Source: an uncultured Gemmatimonas sp. | GTDB taxonomy: Bacteria > Gemmatimonadota > Gemmatimonadetes > Gemmatimonadales > Gemmatimonadaceae | NCBI GenBank assembly: GCA_964416005.1 | Contig: CAYQCP010000006.1 | Coordinates: 20,082 to 84,081 of the forward strand | Direction of reading: 5' to 3' | Length of the DNA: 64,000 nt | In this document: in pieces, positions 27,085 through 36,487 of the stretch | Layout: every line of letters starts with the position of its first letter | Position numbering within the stretch: position 1 is the stretch's first letter | Made by a program: the position numbers and the translations under genes | The notes under the pieces: model-generated | What the model saw: only the letters and a program-made list of their open reading frames with translations | Told to the model about the DNA's origin: nothing | Databases searched by the model: none

Positions 27085-27246
27085 TCATTGTGAAATCGTA
27101 AAATAGTGTGTATGCCGTTCTTCTGGAGGTGCCGTGGTGGCATGAACTGGCGAAAAGAGTGCCAGCGCCAACCCCACCGTCTGGCAACGACGGATCGATC
27201 CCCGCGGCACCAAGGACTGGCGCCGCCCTGGTGACTGCAATACCAT

Positions 27247-27858
27247 TTGCGTACAATGAGTTCTGTCAATCATCGCGAAGCCATCCTTTCCGCCGCCGCG
27301 CAGCTGTTCGCTCGTTTCGGCTACCGGAAGACGTCCATCGAGGACGTCGCGAAGCGTGCGCGTATCGGAAAGGGAACGATCTATCTCTACTTCGCGACCA
27401 AGGAAGATCTCTTCGGCGCAATCGCGCACCAGATCTGGGGAAATGTGCTGCTCGAACTCGCGGCAGCGGTGAAGCGGGCTCGGACGCCGGAGGCCAAACT
27501 CCGCGCGTACGTGCAGGGGCGTGCCCACCAGCTGATCCGTGTGACCAAGGACTTGAAGGTCCAGCACGACCTCGCCCTTGAGTTGCAGGAGGCTGCCGCC
27601 CCGTTTCTCAAGGAGCTCTGGGAGGCGGAGCGAGGGTTGCTGGAGGGCATCCTCGTCGAGGGCAACGCGGCCAACGCCTTCGTTGTGCGGCATCCTCACG
27701 CCCTGGCACTCGCCATGCAAACCGTGGTGCGTGGGCTGGAGCGGTCGATGATCGACCCGCAGAATGGCCCTGAGCTTCGTCGAGCCATCGACGATCTCCT
27801 GGACGTGCTGGTCCGCGGCATTACCTCGACTGCAGGTCCGGTTCCCGACCAGGCATGA
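27247..27858 (+). CDS. TetR-family transcriptional regulator
   Basis: AAAQLFARFGYRKTSIEDVAKRARIGKGTIYLYFATKEDLF. Confidence 0.9.
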   Translation: MRTMSSVNHREAILSAAAQLFARFGYRKTSIEDVAKRARIGKGTIYLYFATKEDLFGAIAHQIWGNVLLELAAAVKRARTPEAKLRAYVQGRAHQLIRVTKDLKVQHDLALELQEAAAPFLKELWEAERGLLEGILVEGNAANAFVVRHPHALALAMQTVVRGLERSMIDPQNGPELRRAIDDLLDVLVRGITSTAGPVPDQA

Positions 27859-28054
27859 GGTAGATGACATACAGATTGCACAACGACCAACGTTGCGCGT
27901 GCTAATGACCAGAGAACCTGTTCAGACCATTCAGTCACCACGGAACCTCATCCCCCGCTCCGCATCCCGGGAAGCTGCCCAAGGACGAATGATGAAATCC
28001 AGAGACGCAAGGAAGACAATGCCCGCATGTATCGGCGAGACGAGAATCCCCGGC

Positions 28055-29107
28055 ATGCGGCGTTTTATGCCGCGACCGGTCTTCCTCACCATACTCGTCG
28101 CCAGCTTGGCCGCCTGCCGCGGCGAGCAATCCGCTGCACCGCCGCCGCCGCTCGTTGAGTTGGCAACTGCGGTCGTCGACGGTTCCGGCGAAGACATCAG
28201 CTTGAGCGGCACGATCGAGGCCGAACGGACGACACCGCTCGATTTTCCGGTCGTCGGGACGATCGAGGAACTCTCTGTTCACGAAGGACAGGTCGTCCAA
28301 CGCGGTCAGGTGCTGGGGCGGCTCAAGACGCGCTCCTACGAGGATGCCCTCGCAATCGCCGTCGCCAAGTCGGATCAGGCAGAGGATGCGCTGCGGCGGC
28401 TGGAACCCATGCACCGCAATCGCACGATCGCCGACGTGAAGTGGGTCGAGGTGCAGACGGGTGTGCAGCAGGCAAGGCACGCACGCTCGCTGGCCCAGAA
28501 AAACCTGGATGACTGCGTCTTGCGCGCACCGGTCGATGGCACGGTCACTAGCCGGAGCGCGGAGCCCGGCATGTCGGCCATGCCCGGGCGACCGGTGCTC
28601 GTCCTCGTCTCCACGCGGGTCGTTCGTGCGACCGCCCCAGTGCCATCAGGACAGGTCTCGCGCCTGCGGGTAGGTCAGGCAGTCTCTGTTCGCGTGGACG
28701 CGGTCGGAACGGGCCGATCCGGGGAGATCGTCGAGATCGGAGTGGCCGCCGATCCCTTGACTCGAACCTACCCGGTGAAGGTGCGCCTCGCCAACGCCGA
28801 CGGCGCACTGCGCATCGGCATGGTGGCCGAGCTCCGCGTGCGGGTGGCGGGAGCCGCGAGCGCGGTGGTGGTGCCGCGCGAGGCGGTGCGGATGGACGAC
28901 AGCGGGAAGCCCGTCGTCTATGTCGTCCGTGGCGACGTGGTACGGTACCAGACGGTCGACGTCGCTGGCTACCGCGGCGAGTACATCGCCATCTCGCGGG
29001 GGCTCTCCGCTGGCGATCGCGTGGTCACGTCGGGCACGCCGATGCTGGCGGACGGCATCAAGATTCGCGTGGCTAGTTCTCCAGTCAGCGGAGCGCGCGC
29101 CCGATGA
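28055..29107 (+). CDS. RND efflux membrane fusion (periplasmic adaptor) lipoprotein
   Basis: Internal ATG gives MRRFMPRPVFLTILVASLAAC (lipobox). HlyD-like segments VHEGQVVQRGQVLGRL and CVLRAPVDGTV. Confidence 0.85.
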   Translation: MRRFMPRPVFLTILVASLAACRGEQSAAPPPPLVELATAVVDGSGEDISLSGTIEAERTTPLDFPVVGTIEELSVHEGQVVQRGQVLGRLKTRSYEDALAIAVAKSDQAEDALRRLEPMHRNRTIADVKWVEVQTGVQQARHARSLAQKNLDDCVLRAPVDGTVTSRSAEPGMSAMPGRPVLVLVSTRVVRATAPVPSGQVSRLRVGQAVSVRVDAVGTGRSGEIVEIGVAADPLTRTYPVKVRLANADGALRIGMVAELRVRVAGAASAVVVPREAVRMDDSGKPVVYVVRGDVVRYQTVDVAGYRGEYIAISRGLSAGDRVVTSGTPMLADGIKIRVASSPVSGARAR

Positions 29108-32100
29108 AGGCCCACAACCTCATCGAGCGCGCCATGATCGAATGGCGCATCGTGGTCACGCTCGTCGCCGGCCTGGCGATTTTCGGTACCGTCTCGTTCC
29201 TGACCATGCCGCGGCAGGAGTTTCCGGCGTTCACCGTCCGACAGGGACTCGTGGTCGGGATCATGCCGGGTGCCACCTCCGCCGAGGTCGAGGAGCGCCT
29301 CGCCAAGCCGGTGGAGGACTTCCTCTTCAGCTTCGAAGAGGTCAACAAGCTGAAGACCTACTCGCTGTCCAAGGAAGGGCAGCTCATTGTCTTCGTCGAG
29401 CTGAATGACCGGGTGGCTGGGCTGGCTGCGGACGCGTTTTGGGCGAAGCTGCGACTCGGCCTCACCGAACTGCGGGAGCAGAGCCTGCCGCCGCAGGTGG
29501 TGGCACTCGTGGGTAACAACGACTTCGGCGATACGAGCGCGCTCCTGCTCACGCTGACGGCGGAGGGACACAGCGCACGCGACCTGCAGTCCCAGTTGGA
29601 GGTCGTCGAGGCGCAGTTGCGTCGGCTCCCCGGAACGTCCAGGCTCCGACGCTTCGGCATGCAGCGCGAGGTGATCCGCGTCACCCTCTCCAGCGAACGC
29701 CTTTCACACTACGGCGTACGCCCGGCGACGGTCTGGCTGGCGCTGCAGGGGACGGCGGGCCAGCCGGCGCCAGCCCGCCTCGACACCAAGACGCTCGAAC
29801 TGCCCGTGCATGTGGGCGCGGTGCTTCGATCCGAGGACAAGCTCGCGCAGACCATCGTGTTCTCTTCGCCAACGGGATCGCACGTTCGGCTGACGGACGT
29901 GGCGAACATTCGGCGTGAATACGGGCACGACGACGCGTTCGTCCGCTTTGACGGAAAGCAGGCGGTGGTCTTGTCGGTCGAGATGCAGAAGGGGCACAAC
30001 ATCACGACCTTCGGCCGGGAGGTGGACGTGGCGTTGACCGAAGCGCGCCGTGAGCTTCCGCCGACGGTCAGGATCGCCCGTGTGGTCGATCAGCCACAGG
30101 TCGTGGCGGTCGCGGTGGGCCACTTCTTGCGTGACTTTGGGCTGGCAATTGCGGCGGTGATCGCCATGACCATGCTGCTCTTGCCCCTGCGCGTCGCGAT
30201 GGTGGCGGCGGTCTCGATCCCGATCTCCATCCTGATCACCCTGGGCGTGCTCAATGCCCTCGACATACAGCTGCAGACGGTGTCCCTGGCCGGCCTCATC
30301 GTCGTCCTCGGCATGGTGGTGGACAACGCGATCGTCATCATCGACGATCATGTCGAACGGCTCGATCATGGCGTCGACGTGTGGACTGCGGCGAGGGAAA
30401 GCGCGACCAGCCTGGCCGGCCCTGTCTTCAGTGCCACGCTAGCCATCGTCATGGCGTACGTGCCGCTGGCGTGGTTTCTGAAGGGAATGGGCGGCGAGTT
30501 CATCGGGAGCCTGCCCGTCACCATCGCCGTGGCACTCGGCGCCAGTCTTCTGGTCGCCGTCTTCCTCCTGCCCATCCTCAACGTCCGGTTCATTCGTCAC
30601 GGACTCCACCGGCCGGATGGCGATGAGCGCGCGACCGTCCTCGATCACGTGCGGGCCCTCTACAGCCGGAGCCTCGAACGGGCCTTCCAGTGGCCGCTGC
30701 TCGCGATCGGGGCCGGCGTTGGCTCGGTGGTGGCGGCGGCGGTGCTCGGCTTCTTCATGCCGCAGCAGCTCTTCCCGAAGGTCGACCGCAACCAGTTCGC
30801 GGTCGAGATCTATCTGCCCAGTGGCCGTCCGCTGGCCCTGACGGATGGCGTCGCCCGCCGCGTGGAGCGCGAGTTGCTCCGAGACCCGCGCGTGACGCAC
30901 GTGACGTCGTTCATCGGCACGAGTTCGCCGCGCTTCCACACCACGTACATGCCGAATATGCCGTCGCGGCAGTTCGCCCAGCTCCTGGTGAGCACGGTGA
31001 GCGACGAAGCAACGGTCGAGGTGCTGCACGAATACGAACAGCGCCACCGGAATGGTTTTCCGGAAGGCTGGGTGCGCTGGAAACAGCTCGACCTCCAGGC
31101 CACGAGTGCGCCGATCGAAGTCCGCCTTTCCGGAAGTGACATTCCGCCGCTGCGGCAGCTGGCCGTGCGGCTTGAAGCCGCGGCGCGCGCGATCCCCGGC
31201 GTTACGTGGATCCGCAACGATTTCGGCGAGCCGGTGCAGGGAGTGAGCGTTCTGCCAGACGCGGACAACGCCGCGCGCCTCGGCGTGTCGTCCGCCAGCC
31301 TCCAGGCCTCGCTCACTGTCGGAAGCAGCCTTGGCTTGCCAATCGCCACCCTCTGGGAACAGGCCGACCCCATTCGGGTCATGCTCGGCGAGGATCCGCG
31401 CGAGTCGCAGACCATGCAGGGCTTCCGCCGGCAGTACGTCTCGTCGATGCTGGCCGGCGCCGCCGTGCCAATCGAAGAGGTGGCTCGAGTTCGGCCAGAT
31501 TGGAACGAGGAGGCGATCGTGCACCGTAACGGGGTGCGCACGCTGACCGTGCGTGTCGATGTCGGACCCGGGACCCTGGCGTCAGACGTCGAACGCAAGC
31601 TGGACCGTGCCATCAAGGCGATGGGGCCGACGCCCGGCATCCGGATCGGCTGGGGCGGCGAACGGGAGGGCACCGTGGAGAACTACACACCCATGTCGGT
31701 CTCAATGGCCGCGAGCGTGGCCATCATCTACCTCATCCTGCTCTTCGAGTTTGGACGGCATCGGCTGGTCCTGCTCGTGATGGTCACGATGCCGCTCGCG
31801 CTGTTCGGTGCCGTGCTTGGACTGAGGCTCACGGGAAACGCCTTCGGATTCACGTCCTTCCTGGGCGTCATCAGCCTCATGGGCATCGTTGTCCGCAACG
31901 GAATCATCCTCGTGGGATACGCCGAAGAGCTTCGCGCGCAGGGAATGTCCAGTCGGGACGCTGCCTTGGCCGCGGGGATGCGTCGCATGCGGCCCATCGT
32001 GCTCACGTCGGCGGCGGCGGCCGTCGGCGTGGTGCCGATGATCCTGAGTGGTTCCACGCTGTGGGGTCCGCTCGGCGCCGTGACCTTCTTTGGCCTGATC

Positions 32101-33561
32101 TTCTCGACGCTGCTGACCTTGATCGTGCTGCCGGTCGCCTACTGGTTGATGGTGCGGAGCGCCCCGGTCCGCCAGTCGGTGGTGGCAGCCGTGACAGGCG
32201 TCCTGTTGGTCGTCTCGCTGGGCGCACTTCCCTCCGCGGTCGGCGCCCAATCTGGACCGCTGACGCTCGAACAGGTGCGACGCTTGGCCGCGCGCAGTGC
32301 GCCAAAGGTTCGGCAGGCACAGGAAGAAGCGACGGCGGCCGAGCAGACGCGCCGTGCCGCGTTTACGAGTTTCTTCCCGACGGTGTCATCAGCCGCGGTG
32401 GCCGTGGCGGCACGCACGCCACTCGTGAACGTGAACCTACCTGGCGGTGACCTGGCCGTGAACGACGCGAGTGGCGCGTCCACCGGGAACGTCACCAACT
32501 TTCCCGGCGTCAGCATGGCGCTGGCTGACCGCGTTCGCGTCCTGACGTTGACTGCCGTGCAACCACTCTTCGTTGGGGGGCGCGTCGTCAACGGCAATCG
32601 GCTGGCCGCGCTGGGTGTGGCCGTGGCCGAGGACAAGGCCGCCCTCGCCCGGCGCGACGCGGTCGCCCAGGCCGAGGAGAAATACTGGCGGTTGGTGACG
32701 CTGGGCCAGAAGGACCAGACGCTGCGTTCTTACCAGGCGCTGCTCGCCGACTTGGAACGCCAGGCGCGCGATGCGGTGGCAGCTGGACTGGTGACGTCCA
32801 ACGACCTCCTCAAGGTGCGACTGAAGCTGCAGGAAGCCGAGGTCGATCAGTTGCGCCTGGAAAGCGGCCGACGGCTGGCCACTCGCGATCTGAGGCTGCA
32901 CCTGGGCTTGCAGGATGCGTCGCCGGTGGTCGTGACTGATACCGTGCCGGAGCCGCCCGCAGACGACGCGCCGCCGGTCGAGGAGCGACCGGCGGTGGTG
33001 GCGCAACGCCCAGAGCTTCGATTGCTCGGACTGGCGGTTCGCGCCGAGGCCCTGCAGACCGCGCTGGCGATTGGGAGCGCGTTGCCCGCGGTGTCGGTGG
33101 GCGCACAGTTGTTGCGCTACGACCTTGGCGGGCTCGGTACGCGCGGGGATGCCCTGGTCTTTGCCACCGTCAGCGTGCCGCTCACGGGCGTGTGGAAAAC
33201 CGCGCACGAGGTGCGTGGTGGCCAGGCGCGCGAGCGTCTGGCCGCGATGCAGTTGACCGAAGCGCGCGATCTTGTGGCGCTGGAAATCGCGAAGCGAAAG
33301 GACGACCTCAAGGCCGCCTGGCAAGCCGCGCGGGTGGCAGATTTCGGCGTGCAGCAGGCCACGGTGAACTTGCGGGAAGCCTCCGACCGCTCGGCTGGCG
33401 GGCTGGCGACGCTGTCCGACCTTCTTGAAGCCCAAGTCCTTCATCGCCAGGCGACTGACCGGCGGACTGACGCGCGGGTTGAGTACTGGCTGGCCTTGTC
33501 CGCCTTCCGGCGCGCCGTGGGGGCGGAGGAACTGCCGTTGACCGAGGCGCGGGTACCCTGA
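29104..33561 (+). CDS. RND (AcrB-type) inner-membrane pump fused in frame to a TolC-like outer-membrane factor
   Basis: One uninterrupted 1485-codon ORF. Residues 1 to ~1015 are AcrB-like (MKAHNLIERAMIEWRIVVTL...TLIVLPVAYWL). From ATG 32149: MVRSAPVRQSVVAAVTGVLLVVSLGALPSAVGA-QSGPLTLEQVRRLA..., i.e. a signal peptide plus OEP repeats running to the stop. Confidence 0.85.
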   Translation: MKAHNLIERAMIEWRIVVTLVAGLAIFGTVSFLTMPRQEFPAFTVRQGLVVGIMPGATSAEVEERLAKPVEDFLFSFEEVNKLKTYSLSKEGQLIVFVELNDRVAGLAADAFWAKLRLGLTELREQSLPPQVVALVGNNDFGDTSALLLTLTAEGHSARDLQSQLEVVEAQLRRLPGTSRLRRFGMQREVIRVTLSSERLSHYGVRPATVWLALQGTAGQPAPARLDTKTLELPVHVGAVLRSEDKLAQTIVFSSPTGSHVRLTDVANIRREYGHDDAFVRFDGKQAVVLSVEMQKGHNITTFGREVDVALTEARRELPPTVRIARVVDQPQVVAVAVGHFLRDFGLAIAAVIAMTMLLLPLRVAMVAAVSIPISILITLGVLNALDIQLQTVSLAGLIVVLGMVVDNAIVIIDDHVERLDHGVDVWTAARESATSLAGPVFSATLAIVMAYVPLAWFLKGMGGEFIGSLPVTIAVALGASLLVAVFLLPILNVRFIRHGLHRPDGDERATVLDHVRALYSRSLERAFQWPLLAIGAGVGSVVAAAVLGFFMPQQLFPKVDRNQFAVEIYLPSGRPLALTDGVARRVERELLRDPRVTHVTSFIGTSSPRFHTTYMPNMPSRQFAQLLVSTVSDEATVEVLHEYEQRHRNGFPEGWVRWKQLDLQATSAPIEVRLSGSDIPPLRQLAVRLEAAARAIPGVTWIRNDFGEPVQGVSVLPDADNAARLGVSSASLQASLTVGSSLGLPIATLWEQADPIRVMLGEDPRESQTMQGFRRQYVSSMLAGAAVPIEEVARVRPDWNEEAIVHRNGVRTLTVRVDVGPGTLASDVERKLDRAIKAMGPTPGIRIGWGGEREGTVENYTPMSVSMAASVAIIYLILLFEFGRHRLVLLVMVTMPLALFGAVLGLRLTGNAFGFTSFLGVISLMGIVVRNGIILVGYAEELRAQGMSSRDAALAAGMRRMRPIVLTSAAAAVGVVPMILSGSTLWGPLGAVTFFGLIFSTLLTLIVLPVAYWLMVRSAPVRQSVVAAVTGVLLVVSLGALPSAVGAQSGPLTLEQVRRLAARSAPKVRQAQEEATAAEQTRRAAFTSFFPTVSSAAVAVAARTPLVNVNLPGGDLAVNDASGASTGNVTNFPGVSMALADRVRVLTLTAVQPLFVGGRVVNGNRLAALGVAVAEDKAALARRDAVAQAEEKYWRLVTLGQKDQTLRSYQALLADLERQARDAVAAGLVTSNDLLKVRLKLQEAEVDQLRLESGRRLATRDLRLHLGLQDASPVVVTDTVPEPPADDAPPVEERPAVVAQRPELRLLGLAVRAEALQTALAIGSALPAVSVGAQLLRYDLGGLGTRGDALVFATVSVPLTGVWKTAHEVRGGQARERLAAMQLTEARDLVALEIAKRKDDLKAAWQAARVADFGVQQATVNLREASDRSAGGLATLSDLLEAQVLHRQATDRRTDARVEYWLALSAFRRAVGAEELPLTEARVP

Positions 33562-33638
33562 GTCCGTGGGCTTGTCCGTTTGCGCCTGCTCGACAGCGTG
33601 GGCGCTTCCATTCTGCTGCCGGGGCCCTCGCGGTTGTT

Positions 33639-35462
33639 CTACTGCTTGCCCAACATCCTCAGCACGCCCAGCGACATCCACGGCATGTAGGTGATCAGCA
33701 GGACGCCCACGCCCGTGATGATCAGGAACGGCAGGATGTGCCGGTACAGGCTCGTCAGCGGCTTGTTGAACCGCGACGATGACAGGAAGAGGTTCAGACC
33801 GACAGGCGGCATGAGGAACCCCAGCTCGAGATTGGCGAGGAAGATCACGCCGAGGTGGATGGGGTTCACCCCGAACGCCGCGCCCATCGGGGCGATCAGC
33901 GGCGCGAGGATGATGATCGCCGAGTAGATCTCGAGCACGCTGCCGAGCACGAGCAGCAGCCCGTTGAGCGCCAGCAGGAAAACCACCTGCGAGTGGATGT
34001 GCACCTGCACCCACGCGAGGATGGCGTCGGGGATCATGGCGTCGACCAGGTAGTTGGTCAGCCCCATGGCGACCGACAGGAGGATCAGCACCGCGCCCAT
34101 CAGCGCCGCCGCCTTGAGCAGCACGTCGGGCAGCCCGGAGAACGGCTTGATGTCTCTGGTGATGAAGCACTCCACGATGACCGTGTACGCCAGCGCCGCC
34201 GCCGCGGTCTCGATCATCGTCGCCGAGCCGGTAAGGAAGAGCGCGACGATCATCACGGGGAGCATCACTTCCCACTTGGCGAGCCAGGCCGAGGCCGCCA
34301 CCTCGCGCCACGAGAACGGGATCTTCTCGCGCTGCACGTGCCGTCCGACGAGGATGCCGTAGCCGGCGGTGAGGACCACTAGCAGCAGGCCGGGCAGCAG
34401 GCCGGCAAGGAAGAGCTGGTCGGCCGGCACCGTCGCATCGCGCGAACTGGCCACCACGCTGTACAGGATCACCGGCAGGCTGGGCGGGAAGAGCAGGCCC
34501 AGCGAGCCCGATGCCGTCACGAGGCCGAGCGAGAAGCCCTCGGAGTATCCGTCCTTCCGCAAGATGGGGTACACCAGCCCGCCGAGGGCGATGATGGTGA
34601 TGCCCGACCCGCCGGTGAACGTCGTGAACAGCGCGCACACCATCACCACCATGATGGCGATACCGCCGGGCATCCAGCCGAACAACGCGCGGAAGAACCG
34701 GACGAGCCGCTCGGCCGCGGCGCTCTCCGCCAGCACGTACCCCGCGGCCGTCAGCAGGGGGATGGCCGGCAGTGTCGGCGATGCGATCAGCCGGTAGACT
34801 TCGGCCGACACGGCTGCCACCGGGGTGCTCTCGCTGAAGAACATCACGATCGCAATGCCGCCCATGGCGACGAACACTGGCGCACCGAGCAGGGCGGCGC
34901 CAAGCACCACCAGGGCCAGCGGCCAGAGATGGGTCGCCACGTCCGGCGGCACCAGGCCGATGGCGAAAGCGCCTCCGACGGCCGCGAGCGCGACGCCGCG
35001 GCCCCACCACTGGTCCGACGCATTCCACACGAACTGCAGCGCCATGATGCCCATCGACACGGGCATGATGATCTCGCTCACCCATTCGGGGATGCCGATG
35101 GGCAGCATCTTGGGCTCGAGCCGATTGGCCAGCACCACCTGCGCGCTGGCGTAGGCGAGGATGCCGACGACCGCAGCGGCCACCGAGTAGGCCGTCAGCC
35201 GGGACATGCGCCGCAGCAGGCCCTCGTCGAAGAACTCCGATGTCGAGAGCGTCAGGTGCTTGGCCTGGCTCGTCGCCGCCATGCCGCCGACGAACGCGAG
35301 CCAGAGCGTCAGCTGCTGCAGGTACGCCGCCGAGCCGTAAAGGTGGAATCCGCCCAGCGGCCGGCCAATCGCGTCGATCAACGGAAGGAGGGTGGCCAGG
35401 CCGAGCGTGGCCACCAAGATTCCTTTTTCCGTGCGCCTGAATAGCGCGGACAGGATCTTCAC
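33639..35462 (-). CDS. TRAP transporter fused small/large permease (DctQM-type)
   Basis: 607-aa polytopic membrane protein. Overlaps the DctP stop by 4 nt. Typical DctM segments: [17 protein letters not shown] and [25 protein letters not shown]. Confidence 0.9.
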
Positions 35463-36487
35463 TTCTTGACCGCGCCGCGCTGCCGCCGATACTCGTCGCG
35501 GAACCGCAGCGCATCATCGAAGGCGTCGGCGGGTATCACGTTGCCACGAATGAGCGGATAGGACGATTCGGCCAAGCGGCGCCAGATCTCCCGGGCCCGC
35601 GCATCCACCGACACCACCGTGAGCCCGGCCTTCTTCATGGTGTCGATATCGCGCGGGCCACCGGTGCGGACCACTTGCTGGAGCTTCGTCCCCGCCTCCC
35701 GGGCAGCCTGCAGCAACTGCGGCCGGAACTCTTCGGGAATGCGCTCCCACGTCTGCTTCTTGATGACCGTGGCCCCGAGCAGCAACTGCCATTGCATGTC
35801 GGTCATGAACTTCGCGTGTTCGTAGTACCGCGTGATCACCGCCACCTGCGGGGGCGCGAGGAACACTTCGAAGAGCCCCGTCTGGAGCCCCGTAGTGAGT
35901 TCCGTCGATGGTGCAGGCCTGGGATCGAAGCCGAGCTTCTTCCAGACGTCCGTGGTTTGCGGATCACCGGCCCAACTGAACATCTTCAGCCTCTTCATGT
36001 CGTCGGGCACCGCGATCGGCGCTTTCGCAAAGACTTGGTTCCATCCGCCGTCGGCCCAGTTGAGAACCACGTACCCCTTGGCTTCCATCCGCGACTCGAG
36101 CTTGGGCCGCATCTTCTCAAGCACTGCATAGACCTCGTCGTAGTCACCGAACGCCATCGGGATACCCAAGGCGTACACACTCCGGTCGATCTCGGCGATG
36201 CCCACCGAGGTCAAGACGCCCGCGTTGAGTGTGCCCAGGTGCATCTTGCGCACCACATCGGGATCGTCACCCTGCCGGCCGCCGGGGTACAGGAGCACAC
36301 GGACCTTGCCGCCTGAGATCCTGTTCCACTTGTCGGCGACTTCCTTCAGCACTAGGAACCACGAGGAGTTCTCCGGTACCAGCGTGGCCATCTTGACCGT
36401 GATCGGCGCCTGGGCCTGCGCGGGCGCCACGATCCCCACCGCGAGAGCGAGGGTGAAACCGAACGGCAGCAAAAGTCTGCGTGTCAT
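35459..36487 (-). CDS. TRAP transporter substrate-binding protein (DctP family)
   Basis: Signal peptide MTRRLLLPFGFTLALAVGIVAPAQA. DctP-like body. Confidence 0.9.
   Translation of the reverse strand: MTRRLLLPFGFTLALAVGIVAPAQAQAPITVKMATLVPENSSWFLVLKEVADKWNRISGGKVRVLLYPGGRQGDDPDVVRKMHLGTLNAGVLTSVGIAEIDRSVYALGIPMAFGDYDEVYAVLEKMRPKLESRMEAKGYVVLNWADGGWNQVFAKAPIAVPDDMKRLKMFSWAGDPQTTDVWKKLGFDPRPAPSTELTTGLQTGLFEVFLAPPQVAVITRYYEHAKFMTDMQWQLLLGATVIKKQTWERIPEEFRPQLLQAAREAGTKLQQVVRTGGPRDIDTMKKAGLTVVSVDARAREIWRRLAESSYPLIRGNVIPADAFDDALRFRDEYRRQRGAVKK

Follow-up and report, generated by a model that had tools for sequence, protein, structure and literature searches.

How can an inner-membrane pump and an outer-membrane channel be encoded in one reading frame, and does the resulting chain remain a single protein? 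The question is raised by a locus from an uncultured Gemmatimonas sp., known from a 157-contig draft assembly of which a stretch of 64,000 nucleotides was analysed (the window). A single forward-strand frame at 29104–33561, with 1485 codons plus stop and no internal stop in its translation, encodes in this order an RND permease, an internal signal peptide and, in full, an outer-membrane factor (OMF) of the TolC type. The intrinsic tolerance of Gram-negative bacteria to drugs and toxins depends centrally on tripartite efflux pumps, and in textbooks the three components of such a pump are distinct proteins. A preliminary description had recognised pump and channel in this uninterrupted frame, and the ORF list, the translation and Pfam agree on that architecture, with ACR_tran at residues 12–1016 (E 1.3e-154) and two OEP repeats (E 5.4e-33) in a product of 160.1 kDa predicted precursor mass. 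Judged by sequence conservation, the openness of the frame is not due to chance, because the same architecture is kept in hundreds of proteins, down to about 35% identity. The features of the locus are the following:

27247–27858, forward strand: TetR-family regulator gene, the first of the cassette (Pfam TetR_N, E 5.3e-18)
28055–29107, forward strand: periplasmic adaptor (MFP) gene (Pfam HlyD_D23 and HlyD_3; NCBIfam TIGR01730 RND_mfp)
29104–33561, forward strand: fused RND-OMF gene (ORF list, translation, Pfam)
29104–32154, forward strand: RND permease part, residues 1–1017, to the end of TM12 (ACR_tran, AF2)
32149–32175, forward strand: putative signal-peptide n-region, M1016–Q1024, with two Arg, continuous with the cytoplasmic tail of the pump
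32176–32247, forward strand: hydrophobic core and c-region, the would-be TM13, S1025–A1048, ending in P-S-A-V-G-A
32245–32250, forward strand: predicted signal peptidase I site between Ala1048 and Gln1049 (GCC, CAA), from the -3/-1 rule and family conservation
32248–33558, forward strand: predicted mature TolC-type OMF, 437 aa, 46.6 kDa (Pfam OEP twice, AF2, Foldseek)

The tetR-mfp-rnd::omf arrangement is a three-gene cassette predicted to encode a tripartite RND efflux pump. The TetR gene lies inside a 6.3-kb block (27216–33554) that the window shares at 87% identity with an independently assembled congener, G001. The adjacent adaptor, as expected of a tripartite operon, scores 188.7 bits against TIGR01730 RND_mfp (cut-off 94.9). 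Its frame is open from 27764 on, the likely start being ATG 28055; the protein would then begin MRRFMPRPVFLTILVASLAAC, a lipoprotein-type signal with LAAC, and its stop overlaps the pump start in an ATGA at 29104–29107. A TRAP DctQM gene at 33639–35462 is overlapped by a 1026-aa antisense ORF (32437–35517, reverse strand), which also runs over the OMF part. This ORF was rejected as a real gene there, its extension matching no family; it is an open-frame extension of the real DctQM gene, in DNA of 66–69% GC.

The RND part belongs, by its alignments, to the MexK/TriC-like clade. It covers positions 6–1020 of the 1021 in the ACR_tran profile, which describes AcrB/AcrD/AcrF-type proteins with 12 TM helices and two periplasmic loops (PF00873; 516.9 bits against a 28-bit cut-off), and the nearest solved structures, aligned end to end, are MexK 20yy/9xwg (E 1.5e-106) and 6vej (E 6.4e-105). 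The AF2 model places the TM12 helix at residues 987–1017. TM4 holds the motif V-D407-N408-A-I-V-x-I-D414 and TM10 holds R931, both conserved in 111–113 of 113 members: D407 and the extra D414 are invariant, position 408 is Asn in 111 and Arg931 is present in 112. The proton relay appears atypical, with D-N in TM4 where AcrB has the essential D407-D408, and with Arg931 in place of the TM10 K940; the retention of the D-N pattern across the family argues against decay. None of the NCBIfam HAE1/HME RND subfamily cut-offs (NF033617, NF000282, TIGR00914, TIGR00915) is reached, the best score being 436.9 bits against 1250, with 314 against 701 for TIGR00914 and 277 against 940 for TIGR00915. Because these scores lie far under the cut-offs, the protein was given no curated RND subfamily or substrate class.

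The OMF part holds two tandem OEP repeats (PF02321; 114.8 bits against a 22-bit cut-off), found in the genome scan at C6:52347-52979 and C6:53076-53603. Its AF2 monomer model (mean pLDDT 83) matches the OMF protomer fold, namely a unit of helix, two beta-barrel strands, long helix and helix that occurs twice, with an equatorial segment between. Foldseek aligned it over about 430 columns with CmeC (4mt4), TolC (1ek9), OprN (5iuy), VceC (1yc9) and CusC (3pik), and also with OprM (E 1e-14 to 1e-17, target-normalised TM 0.70–0.79). The site P-S-A-V-G-A before Gln has no lipobox Cys at +1, and no convincing lipobox was seen in 33 divergent fused representatives.

Comparison with related loci confirmed the fusion as one real, conserved gene, not an assembly error. 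The congener carries the fused gene at 85–94% protein and 87.4% DNA identity. Almost all of the best 120 of 316 matches to residues 960–1485 are 1430–1510 aa long and combine ACR_tran with OEP, and more than 100 metagenomic proteins are fused likewise. Of 80 species-representative loci, 73, from at least four phyla, read through the junction without interruption; the sample is skewed to fused forms, since the query covered the junction. Acidobacteriota, Myxococcota, 'Eisenbacteria', Bacteroidota and Ignavibacteriota are represented among these open loci, as is the cultured Prolixibacter bellariivorans ATCC BAA-1284. The search of orthologous loci proposed in the preliminary description thus returned mostly fused genes, not uniformly separate ones. 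A profile from alignment A2 detected a full OMF in 35 of 35 long representatives, of which single-sequence phmmer with the OMF part had matched only 17; all 35 also have a signal-like junction.

The junction DNA reads ...GCC TAC TGG TTG ATG GTG CGG..., with an in-frame ATG at 32149 (residue 1016), and past TM12 the chain continues as MVRSAPVRQ, SVVAAVTGVLLVVSLGALPSAVGA and QSGPLTLEQ. The signal peptide described earlier behind the AcrB-like part was recovered, with a positively charged n-region, 24 uncharged residues and V-G-A before Gln1049, and its topological reading holds: TM12 ends in the cytoplasm, so that one further hydrophobic segment sets the OMF part in the periplasm. The segment shows the positive n-region, hydrophobic h-region, small residues at -3 and -1 and lack of Pro at +1 that characterise substrates of Sec and signal peptidase I. 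In the AF2 model, a helix at 1024–1040 gives way to a disordered site at 1042–1049, where pLDDT is below 50, and then to the OMF, with about 14 residues (1041–1054) between the membrane helix and the first OMF helix. Across the family, 99% of the n-regions contain Lys or Arg, with a median net charge of +2. Among 162 unique junctions, position -1 is always small (141 Ala, 12 Gly, 9 Ser), position -3 is small or aliphatic (A/V/T/L/S/G), position -2 is bulky or charged, Pro is frequent at -6 to -4, and position +1 is Gln, Glu or Asp in 153 (94%; 133, 12 and 8, respectively), so that the h-region varies freely around a fixed cleavage motif. The out-of-frame TGA within TTGATG (32147–32149) was considered as a relic of a TGATG stop/start overlap and rejected, because the alternative frame gives S-P-T-G-stop instead of the conserved LPVAYWL, and because such a TGA arises from any Leu(TTG)-Met codon pair.

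Seven Bacteroidota loci of the same family are split, including that of Daejeonella rubra DSM 24536 (L014), and in the window's own phylum one genome (G340) is split in another frame. In the split Bacteroidota loci, one to three stop codons are followed by a Met-Lys start (M-K-K...), the same h-region and A-x-A before Gln, making the same signal peptide the ordinary N-terminal one of the OMF. D. rubra and Lutibacter sp. (L026) share the RND clade and gene order of the fused form, with the signal peptide and its A-x-A motif at the same position before a conserved L-[ST]-L-[DE]-x-C-[KR] helix. By these alignments, the two states differ only by the stop codon and the start codon before the OMF signal peptide. 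Fused and unfused forms interleave on the tree, where sister pairs made up of a fused and an unfused form reach 100% support. Among 65 representatives, the well-supported branches require no fewer than 15 state changes; among 124, they require about 21. The lineages have switched state many times, which suggests that both states yield equivalent products.

We consider it probable that the chain is a polyprotein precursor, cut by signal peptidase I after Ala1048 into a 113.5-kDa pump with 13 helices and a 46.6-kDa OMF. The genuine fusion entertained in the preliminary description is hereby supported, by its conservation and by a -1/-3 site compatible with cleavage in all 162 junctions, with cleavage itself as the proposed step. 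One 160-kDa precursor would carry both the inner-membrane permease and the outer-membrane channel. The RND part would insert co-translationally, leaving the end of TM12 in the cytoplasm, as is established for RND topology. The Arg-bearing tail would stay inside, while segment 1025–1041 would enter the Sec translocon N-in/C-out and, like an ordinary signal peptide, start export of the 437-residue OMF part. Signal peptidase I would then cut after V-G-A1048, freeing an OMF that begins QSGPLTLEQ and leaving the signal peptide on the pump as its 13th helix. Finally, BAM would fold the free OMF into the outer membrane, and this OMF would assemble with pump and lipoprotein adaptor in the manner of AcrAB-TolC. 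The genome encodes two S26 signal peptidases and two Omp85 proteins, and it has about 17 OMF genes, amid which the fusion would fix a 1:1 output of pump and channel and a dedicated partner.

Alternatively, the fusion could stay uncleaved, with TM13 as a permanent anchor and the tethered OMF forming a non-canonical periplasmic duct or a chain that spans both membranes. This is unlikely, since a permanent anchor needs neither a small residue at -1 in every junction, nor the canonical -3/-2/+1 pattern around a free core, and since the split relatives have this very segment as a plain signal peptide at the N-terminus of the OMF; the frequent switching between states also speaks against it. Moreover, in an assembled pump the distance from the inner membrane to the N-terminal region of the OMF is well over 100 Å (AcrAB-TolC structures, e.g. 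PDB 5NG5), whereas the linker of about 14 residues could span at most about 50 Å, too short for canonical tripartite geometry. More broadly, that the chain is uncut or cut only conditionally, with pump and channel as one polypeptide anchored by a 13th helix, is very unlikely; it would mean one protein serving both membranes, or an OMF held at the inner membrane until signalled release, and the parts would have to assemble in a geometry that no solved tripartite pump shows.

It is similarly improbable that translation starts internally at ATG 32149 (or a nearby GTG), yielding a separate 49.8-kDa OMF pre-protein and making the fusion product minor or useless. An in-frame ATG does lie exactly at the junction (YWLM...) in the window genome and its congener, ahead of a complete signal peptide. 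However, no Shine-Dalgarno-like sequence was found upstream of 32149 (at best three of six matches to AGGAGG), and the Met is not conserved: among 62 fused loci, 16 have an in-frame ATG at the junction, where random windows of the same genes predict 25.9, and 41 have any of ATG, GTG or TTG there, with 47.3 expected. Internal initiation, as raised in the preliminary description, therefore finds no support as a family feature. Furthermore, with no stop codon, every ribosome that ends the RND part continues into the OMF, so that the fused chain would be the main product anyway; the cell would still need a way to handle it, and this again points to cleavage. Least credible, to the point of being negligible, is a one-off artefact or a pseudogene of recent origin (an overlooked stop or an indel, or a fresh, functionless stop loss), for which speak the draft state of the genome and the stops or frameshifts elsewhere in the RND part of three related loci from long-read MAGs (L011, L059, L080), and against which stand the same fused frame in the congener's block, its recurrence in hundreds of independent assemblies from several phyla, and two full-length halves with conserved motifs.

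No description of a natural RND-OMF fusion was found in the full-text literature searched, which includes only a minority of subscription journals; where the two main reviews and a preprint about protein secretion systems use 'fused' or 'fusion', they mean something else. NCBI names the fused genes just 'efflux RND transporter permease subunit', a label that leads genome surveys to count too few OMFs and to overlook the fused architecture. A natural polyprotein form would give tripartite pumps a new biogenesis route, in which an internal signal peptide at the C-terminal end of a polytopic inner-membrane protein sends off an outer-membrane beta-barrel protein. Fused and split versions that are close relatives exist in culturable species and offer natural experiments, which could reveal what controls pump:channel stoichiometry and the choice of partner, and whether the retained signal peptide acts as an extra pump helix.

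Among known systems, the nearest solved RND permeases are those of MexJK(-OprM/OpmH) and TriABC-OpmH from Pseudomonas aeruginosa, at only about 30% identity. Like the fused cassette, they have an adaptor gene directly upstream and, within the cassette, a regulator of the TetR family; MexL, which is of the TetR type, controls mexJK. The MexK alignment shows the same TM10 Arg replacing AcrB Lys940, whereas TM4 is D-D in the MexJK and TriABC pumps and D-N in the fused one. To our knowledge, the Pseudomonas mexJK and triABC operons lack an OMF gene of their own and make use of OprM or OpmH; in the fused cassette, by contrast, the OMF lies within the pump polypeptide. AcrAB-TolC, MexAB-OprM and CmeABC share with it a lipoprotein adaptor, a 12-TM RND permease and a two-repeat OMF. 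However, in all described systems that we know of the OMF forms a polypeptide by itself and carries a signal at its N-terminus, whereas in the fused form the signal peptide lies inside the chain, behind TM12 of the pump, and, unlike OprM and CmeC, the OMF is not a lipoprotein. The closest bacterial mechanistic precedent known to us is the FbcH cytochrome b/c1 polyprotein of Bradyrhizobium japonicum, which is reportedly cut into two mature proteins. There too, one chain runs from a polytopic inner-membrane protein through an internal signal peptide into a protein that faces the periplasm; the proteins are unrelated, however, and the released part of FbcH remains at the inner membrane instead of being sent to the outer membrane.

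The RND permease and the TolC-type outer-membrane factor (OMF) are encoded, as the preliminary description had it, in one uninterrupted frame of 1485 codons with zero internal stops. The junction codons read GCC TAC TGG TTG ATG GTG CGG, where the in-frame ATG at 32149 corresponds to residue 1016. Pfam assigns residues 12–1016 of the fused protein to ACR_tran (E 1.3e-154) and two OEP repeats to its C-terminal third (E 5.4e-33). The fused gene belongs to a three-gene cassette (tetR-mfp-rnd::omf), whose members and neighbors are the following:

27247-27858: TetR-family gene
ORF open from 27764: periplasmic adaptor (MFP) gene, whose stop overlaps the pump start as ATGA
29104-33561, forward strand: fused gene rnd::omf
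downstream of the fused gene, convergent: TRAP-transporter genes

The adaptor probably starts at ATG 28055, before a lipoprotein-type signal, MRRFMPRPVFLTILVASLAAC, with LAAC. The upstream part of its ORF (27764-28054) is a 97-codon extension overlapping the end of the TetR gene, and a start at 28055 leaves a 196-nt gap after tetR, which would house a promoter or operator. On the reverse strand, an ORF of 1026 aa (32437-35517) overlaps the OMF part; within this ORF, the real gene comprises only 33639-35462 and encodes a DctQ-DctM fused TRAP permease. The remainder was rejected as a gene, being the kind of open-frame extension common in high-GC DNA. The host genome (3.94 Mb, 157 contigs, 99.5% complete) holds 11 full-length RND genes and about 17 OMF genes, and this is their only fused pair.

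When residues 960-1485 (TM11-12, junction, and OMF) were used as a query against proteins of comparable total length, 316 matches were obtained; the best 120 are nearly all of 1430-1510 aa with ACR_tran and OEP, at identities down to 34%. Orthologous loci were also searched for a stop codon or the same fusion, using a junction-spanning alignment against one genome per species. Among the best 80 of more than 576 related stretches, the junction is open in 73 and split by stops in 7. Complete open-junction loci have frames of about 1465-1560 aa, a few reaching 1778. Carriers are labeled as Acidobacteriota, Myxococcota, 'Eisenbacteria', Bacteroidota, and Ignavibacteriota, and include the cultured Prolixibacter bellariivorans ATCC BAA-1284; the same fused gene is also present in a congeneric genome, G001. 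The RND-OMF fusion is therefore genuine and conserved, which excludes both the lost stop or one-off sequencing error considered earlier and a fresh pseudogene. No description of a natural RND-OMF fusion was found in the full-text literature searched. In three related loci (L011, L059, and L080), of which at least two derive from long-read MAG assemblies, the junction is open but the RND part is interrupted by a stop or frameshift, the likely explanation being assembly indels or the occasional pseudogene.

Across 162 unique junctions, the conserved end of TM12 (LPVxYW) is followed by a hydrophilic stretch (median 18 residues, K/R in 99%, median net charge +2) and then by an uncharged stretch, also of median 18 residues, whose sequence is unconserved. 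Pro is common at positions -6 to -4; position -3 is A93/V18/T17/L12/S12/G5 with 5 others, -2 is mainly Q/R/H/S/F/N, -1 is invariably small (A141/G12/S9), and +1 is Q133/E12/D8. Judged by sequence, these positions follow the classical pattern for signal peptidase I, which in the window reads P-S-A-V-G-A1048 / Q1049-S-G-P-L-T-L-E-Q. A few residues past the site begins the first helix of the OMF, conserved as L-[ST]-L-[DE]-x-C-[KR]-x-L-A. Its Cys, 8-10 residues past the predicted cleavage site and outside any lipobox context, is present in 131 of the 162 members; the window has Val1058 (32275-32277) instead.

The seven split loci are all from Bacteroidota, including Daejeonella rubra DSM 24536. 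They show one to three stop codons past the cytoplasmic tail of the pump and then a Met-Lys start, after which the hydrophobic core and the A-x-A/Q site of the fused forms recur. The internal signal peptide of the fused forms is therefore the ordinary N-terminal signal peptide of the OMF, read through from the pump. A member from the window's own phylum (G340) is also split, its OMF lying in a different frame, and in unfused pumps of the clade a hydrophilic tail of 10-30 residues forms the C-terminus.

Residues 979-1485 were modeled with AlphaFold2 from 60 aligned translated loci, at a mean pLDDT of 83. The model places TM12 at 987-1017, a second helix at 1024-1040, and the beginning of the OMF at residue 1055, while pLDDT falls below 50 at 1042-1049, exactly covering the predicted cleavage site. 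By Foldseek, the OMF model matches CmeC (4mt4), TolC (1ek9), OprN (5iuy), VceC (1yc9), CusC (3pik), and OprM (E 1e-14 to 1e-17, target-normalised TM-score 0.70-0.79, about 430 columns), with PDB 5NG5 also among the matches; the OMF part is complete. Between its first two barrel strands lies an insertion of about 45 residues (1106-1154; 32419-32565) modeled at low confidence (pLDDT about 56-64), with the consensus PGGNLPVYDG...ATQFAYFPG conserved across phyla and Ala in the window at a nearly invariant Pro. The insertion could form a plug or a loop on the extracellular side.

In the model, the linker from the membrane helix to the first helix of the OMF is just about 14 residues long. In assembled AcrAB-TolC, known from cryo-EM (e.g., PDB 5NG5), the inner membrane lies well over 100 Å from the OMF N-terminal region, so that, on this modeled geometry, a canonical pump cannot form from the uncut chain. 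The fused product is probably a polyprotein precursor that signal peptidase I would cleave after Ala1048, releasing products of 113.5 kDa and 46.6 kDa. Genes for two S26 signal peptidases and two Omp85-family proteins are present in the host genome.

The other route proposed to a separate OMF, internal initiation at ATG 32149, finds no support across the family. No SD-like sequence lies upstream (best, 3/6 matches), and an in-frame junction ATG occurs in 16 of 62 fused loci, where chance would give 25.9; for any start-like codon, 41 were observed and 47.3 expected. In any case, the fused chain is made, as no stop codon interrupts it.

In the tree of the RND part, the family stands apart from the ten other RND genes of the host genome with 100% support; one branch (Acidobacteriota and Myxococcota) is fused-only, and the Bacteroidota branch has split forms in three places. 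When the RND part alone was searched against 1.84 billion representatives, fused proteins (1424-1530 aa) and unfused ones (about 1010-1065 aa) were intermixed, the closest unfused protein having 49% identity. All 35 long representatives hold a signal-like junction and, by a profile built here, a full OMF. Among these OMF parts, some diverge strongly (E 1e-9 to 1e-24), although the RND parts that accompany them match the query no less closely than in the other long representatives, which points to fusions that arose independently with different OMF lineages. With 'unfused' defined by protein length only and counts that carry no direction, about 21 state changes were found among 124 rows, 19 of them forced by well-supported branches (FastTree), and, for the unfused label, 19 among 65 rows, of which 15 are forced (IQ-TREE quick); support reaches 100% for many pairs of fused and unfused sisters. 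Such easy switching is expected if both states yield the same mature proteins.

The family occurs in 5 of the 401 genomes searched from the window's phylum (four fused, one split), and in 1 among the 40 closest relatives searched. Homology between the window and the G001 neighborhood is restricted to 27216-33554 (87.4% identity), which is exactly the cassette, in an unrelated flanking context; the G001 counterpart of the TRAP genes lies on another contig (78% identity). Two other congeneric genomes, G011 and G005, match the window from 33644, in the TRAP gene, rightwards, and their pump-side DNA (18 kb and 16 kb, respectively) has no match of at least 300 bp anywhere in the window. The cassette thus seems to behave as a movable unit and looks horizontally mobile.

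Regarding the pump itself, all curated NCBIfam RND subfamilies score far under their cut-offs, and among solved structures the RND subunits closest to it are MexK (20yy/9xwg, E 1.5e-106) and 6vej. The family has its own TM4 signature, V-D407-N408-A-I-V-x-I-D414, together with Arg931 in TM10; the wider family reading of TM4 (30313-30345, residues 404-414) is G-M-V-V-D-N-A-I-V-x-I-D-(D/N)-H. Because the TM4/TM10 pattern is kept in 111-113 of 113 members, it suggests a family with a variant proton relay. Compared to AcrB, Asn408 replaces the essential Asp408, an extra invariant Asp is found at 414, and Arg931 (31894-31896) takes the place of Lys940.
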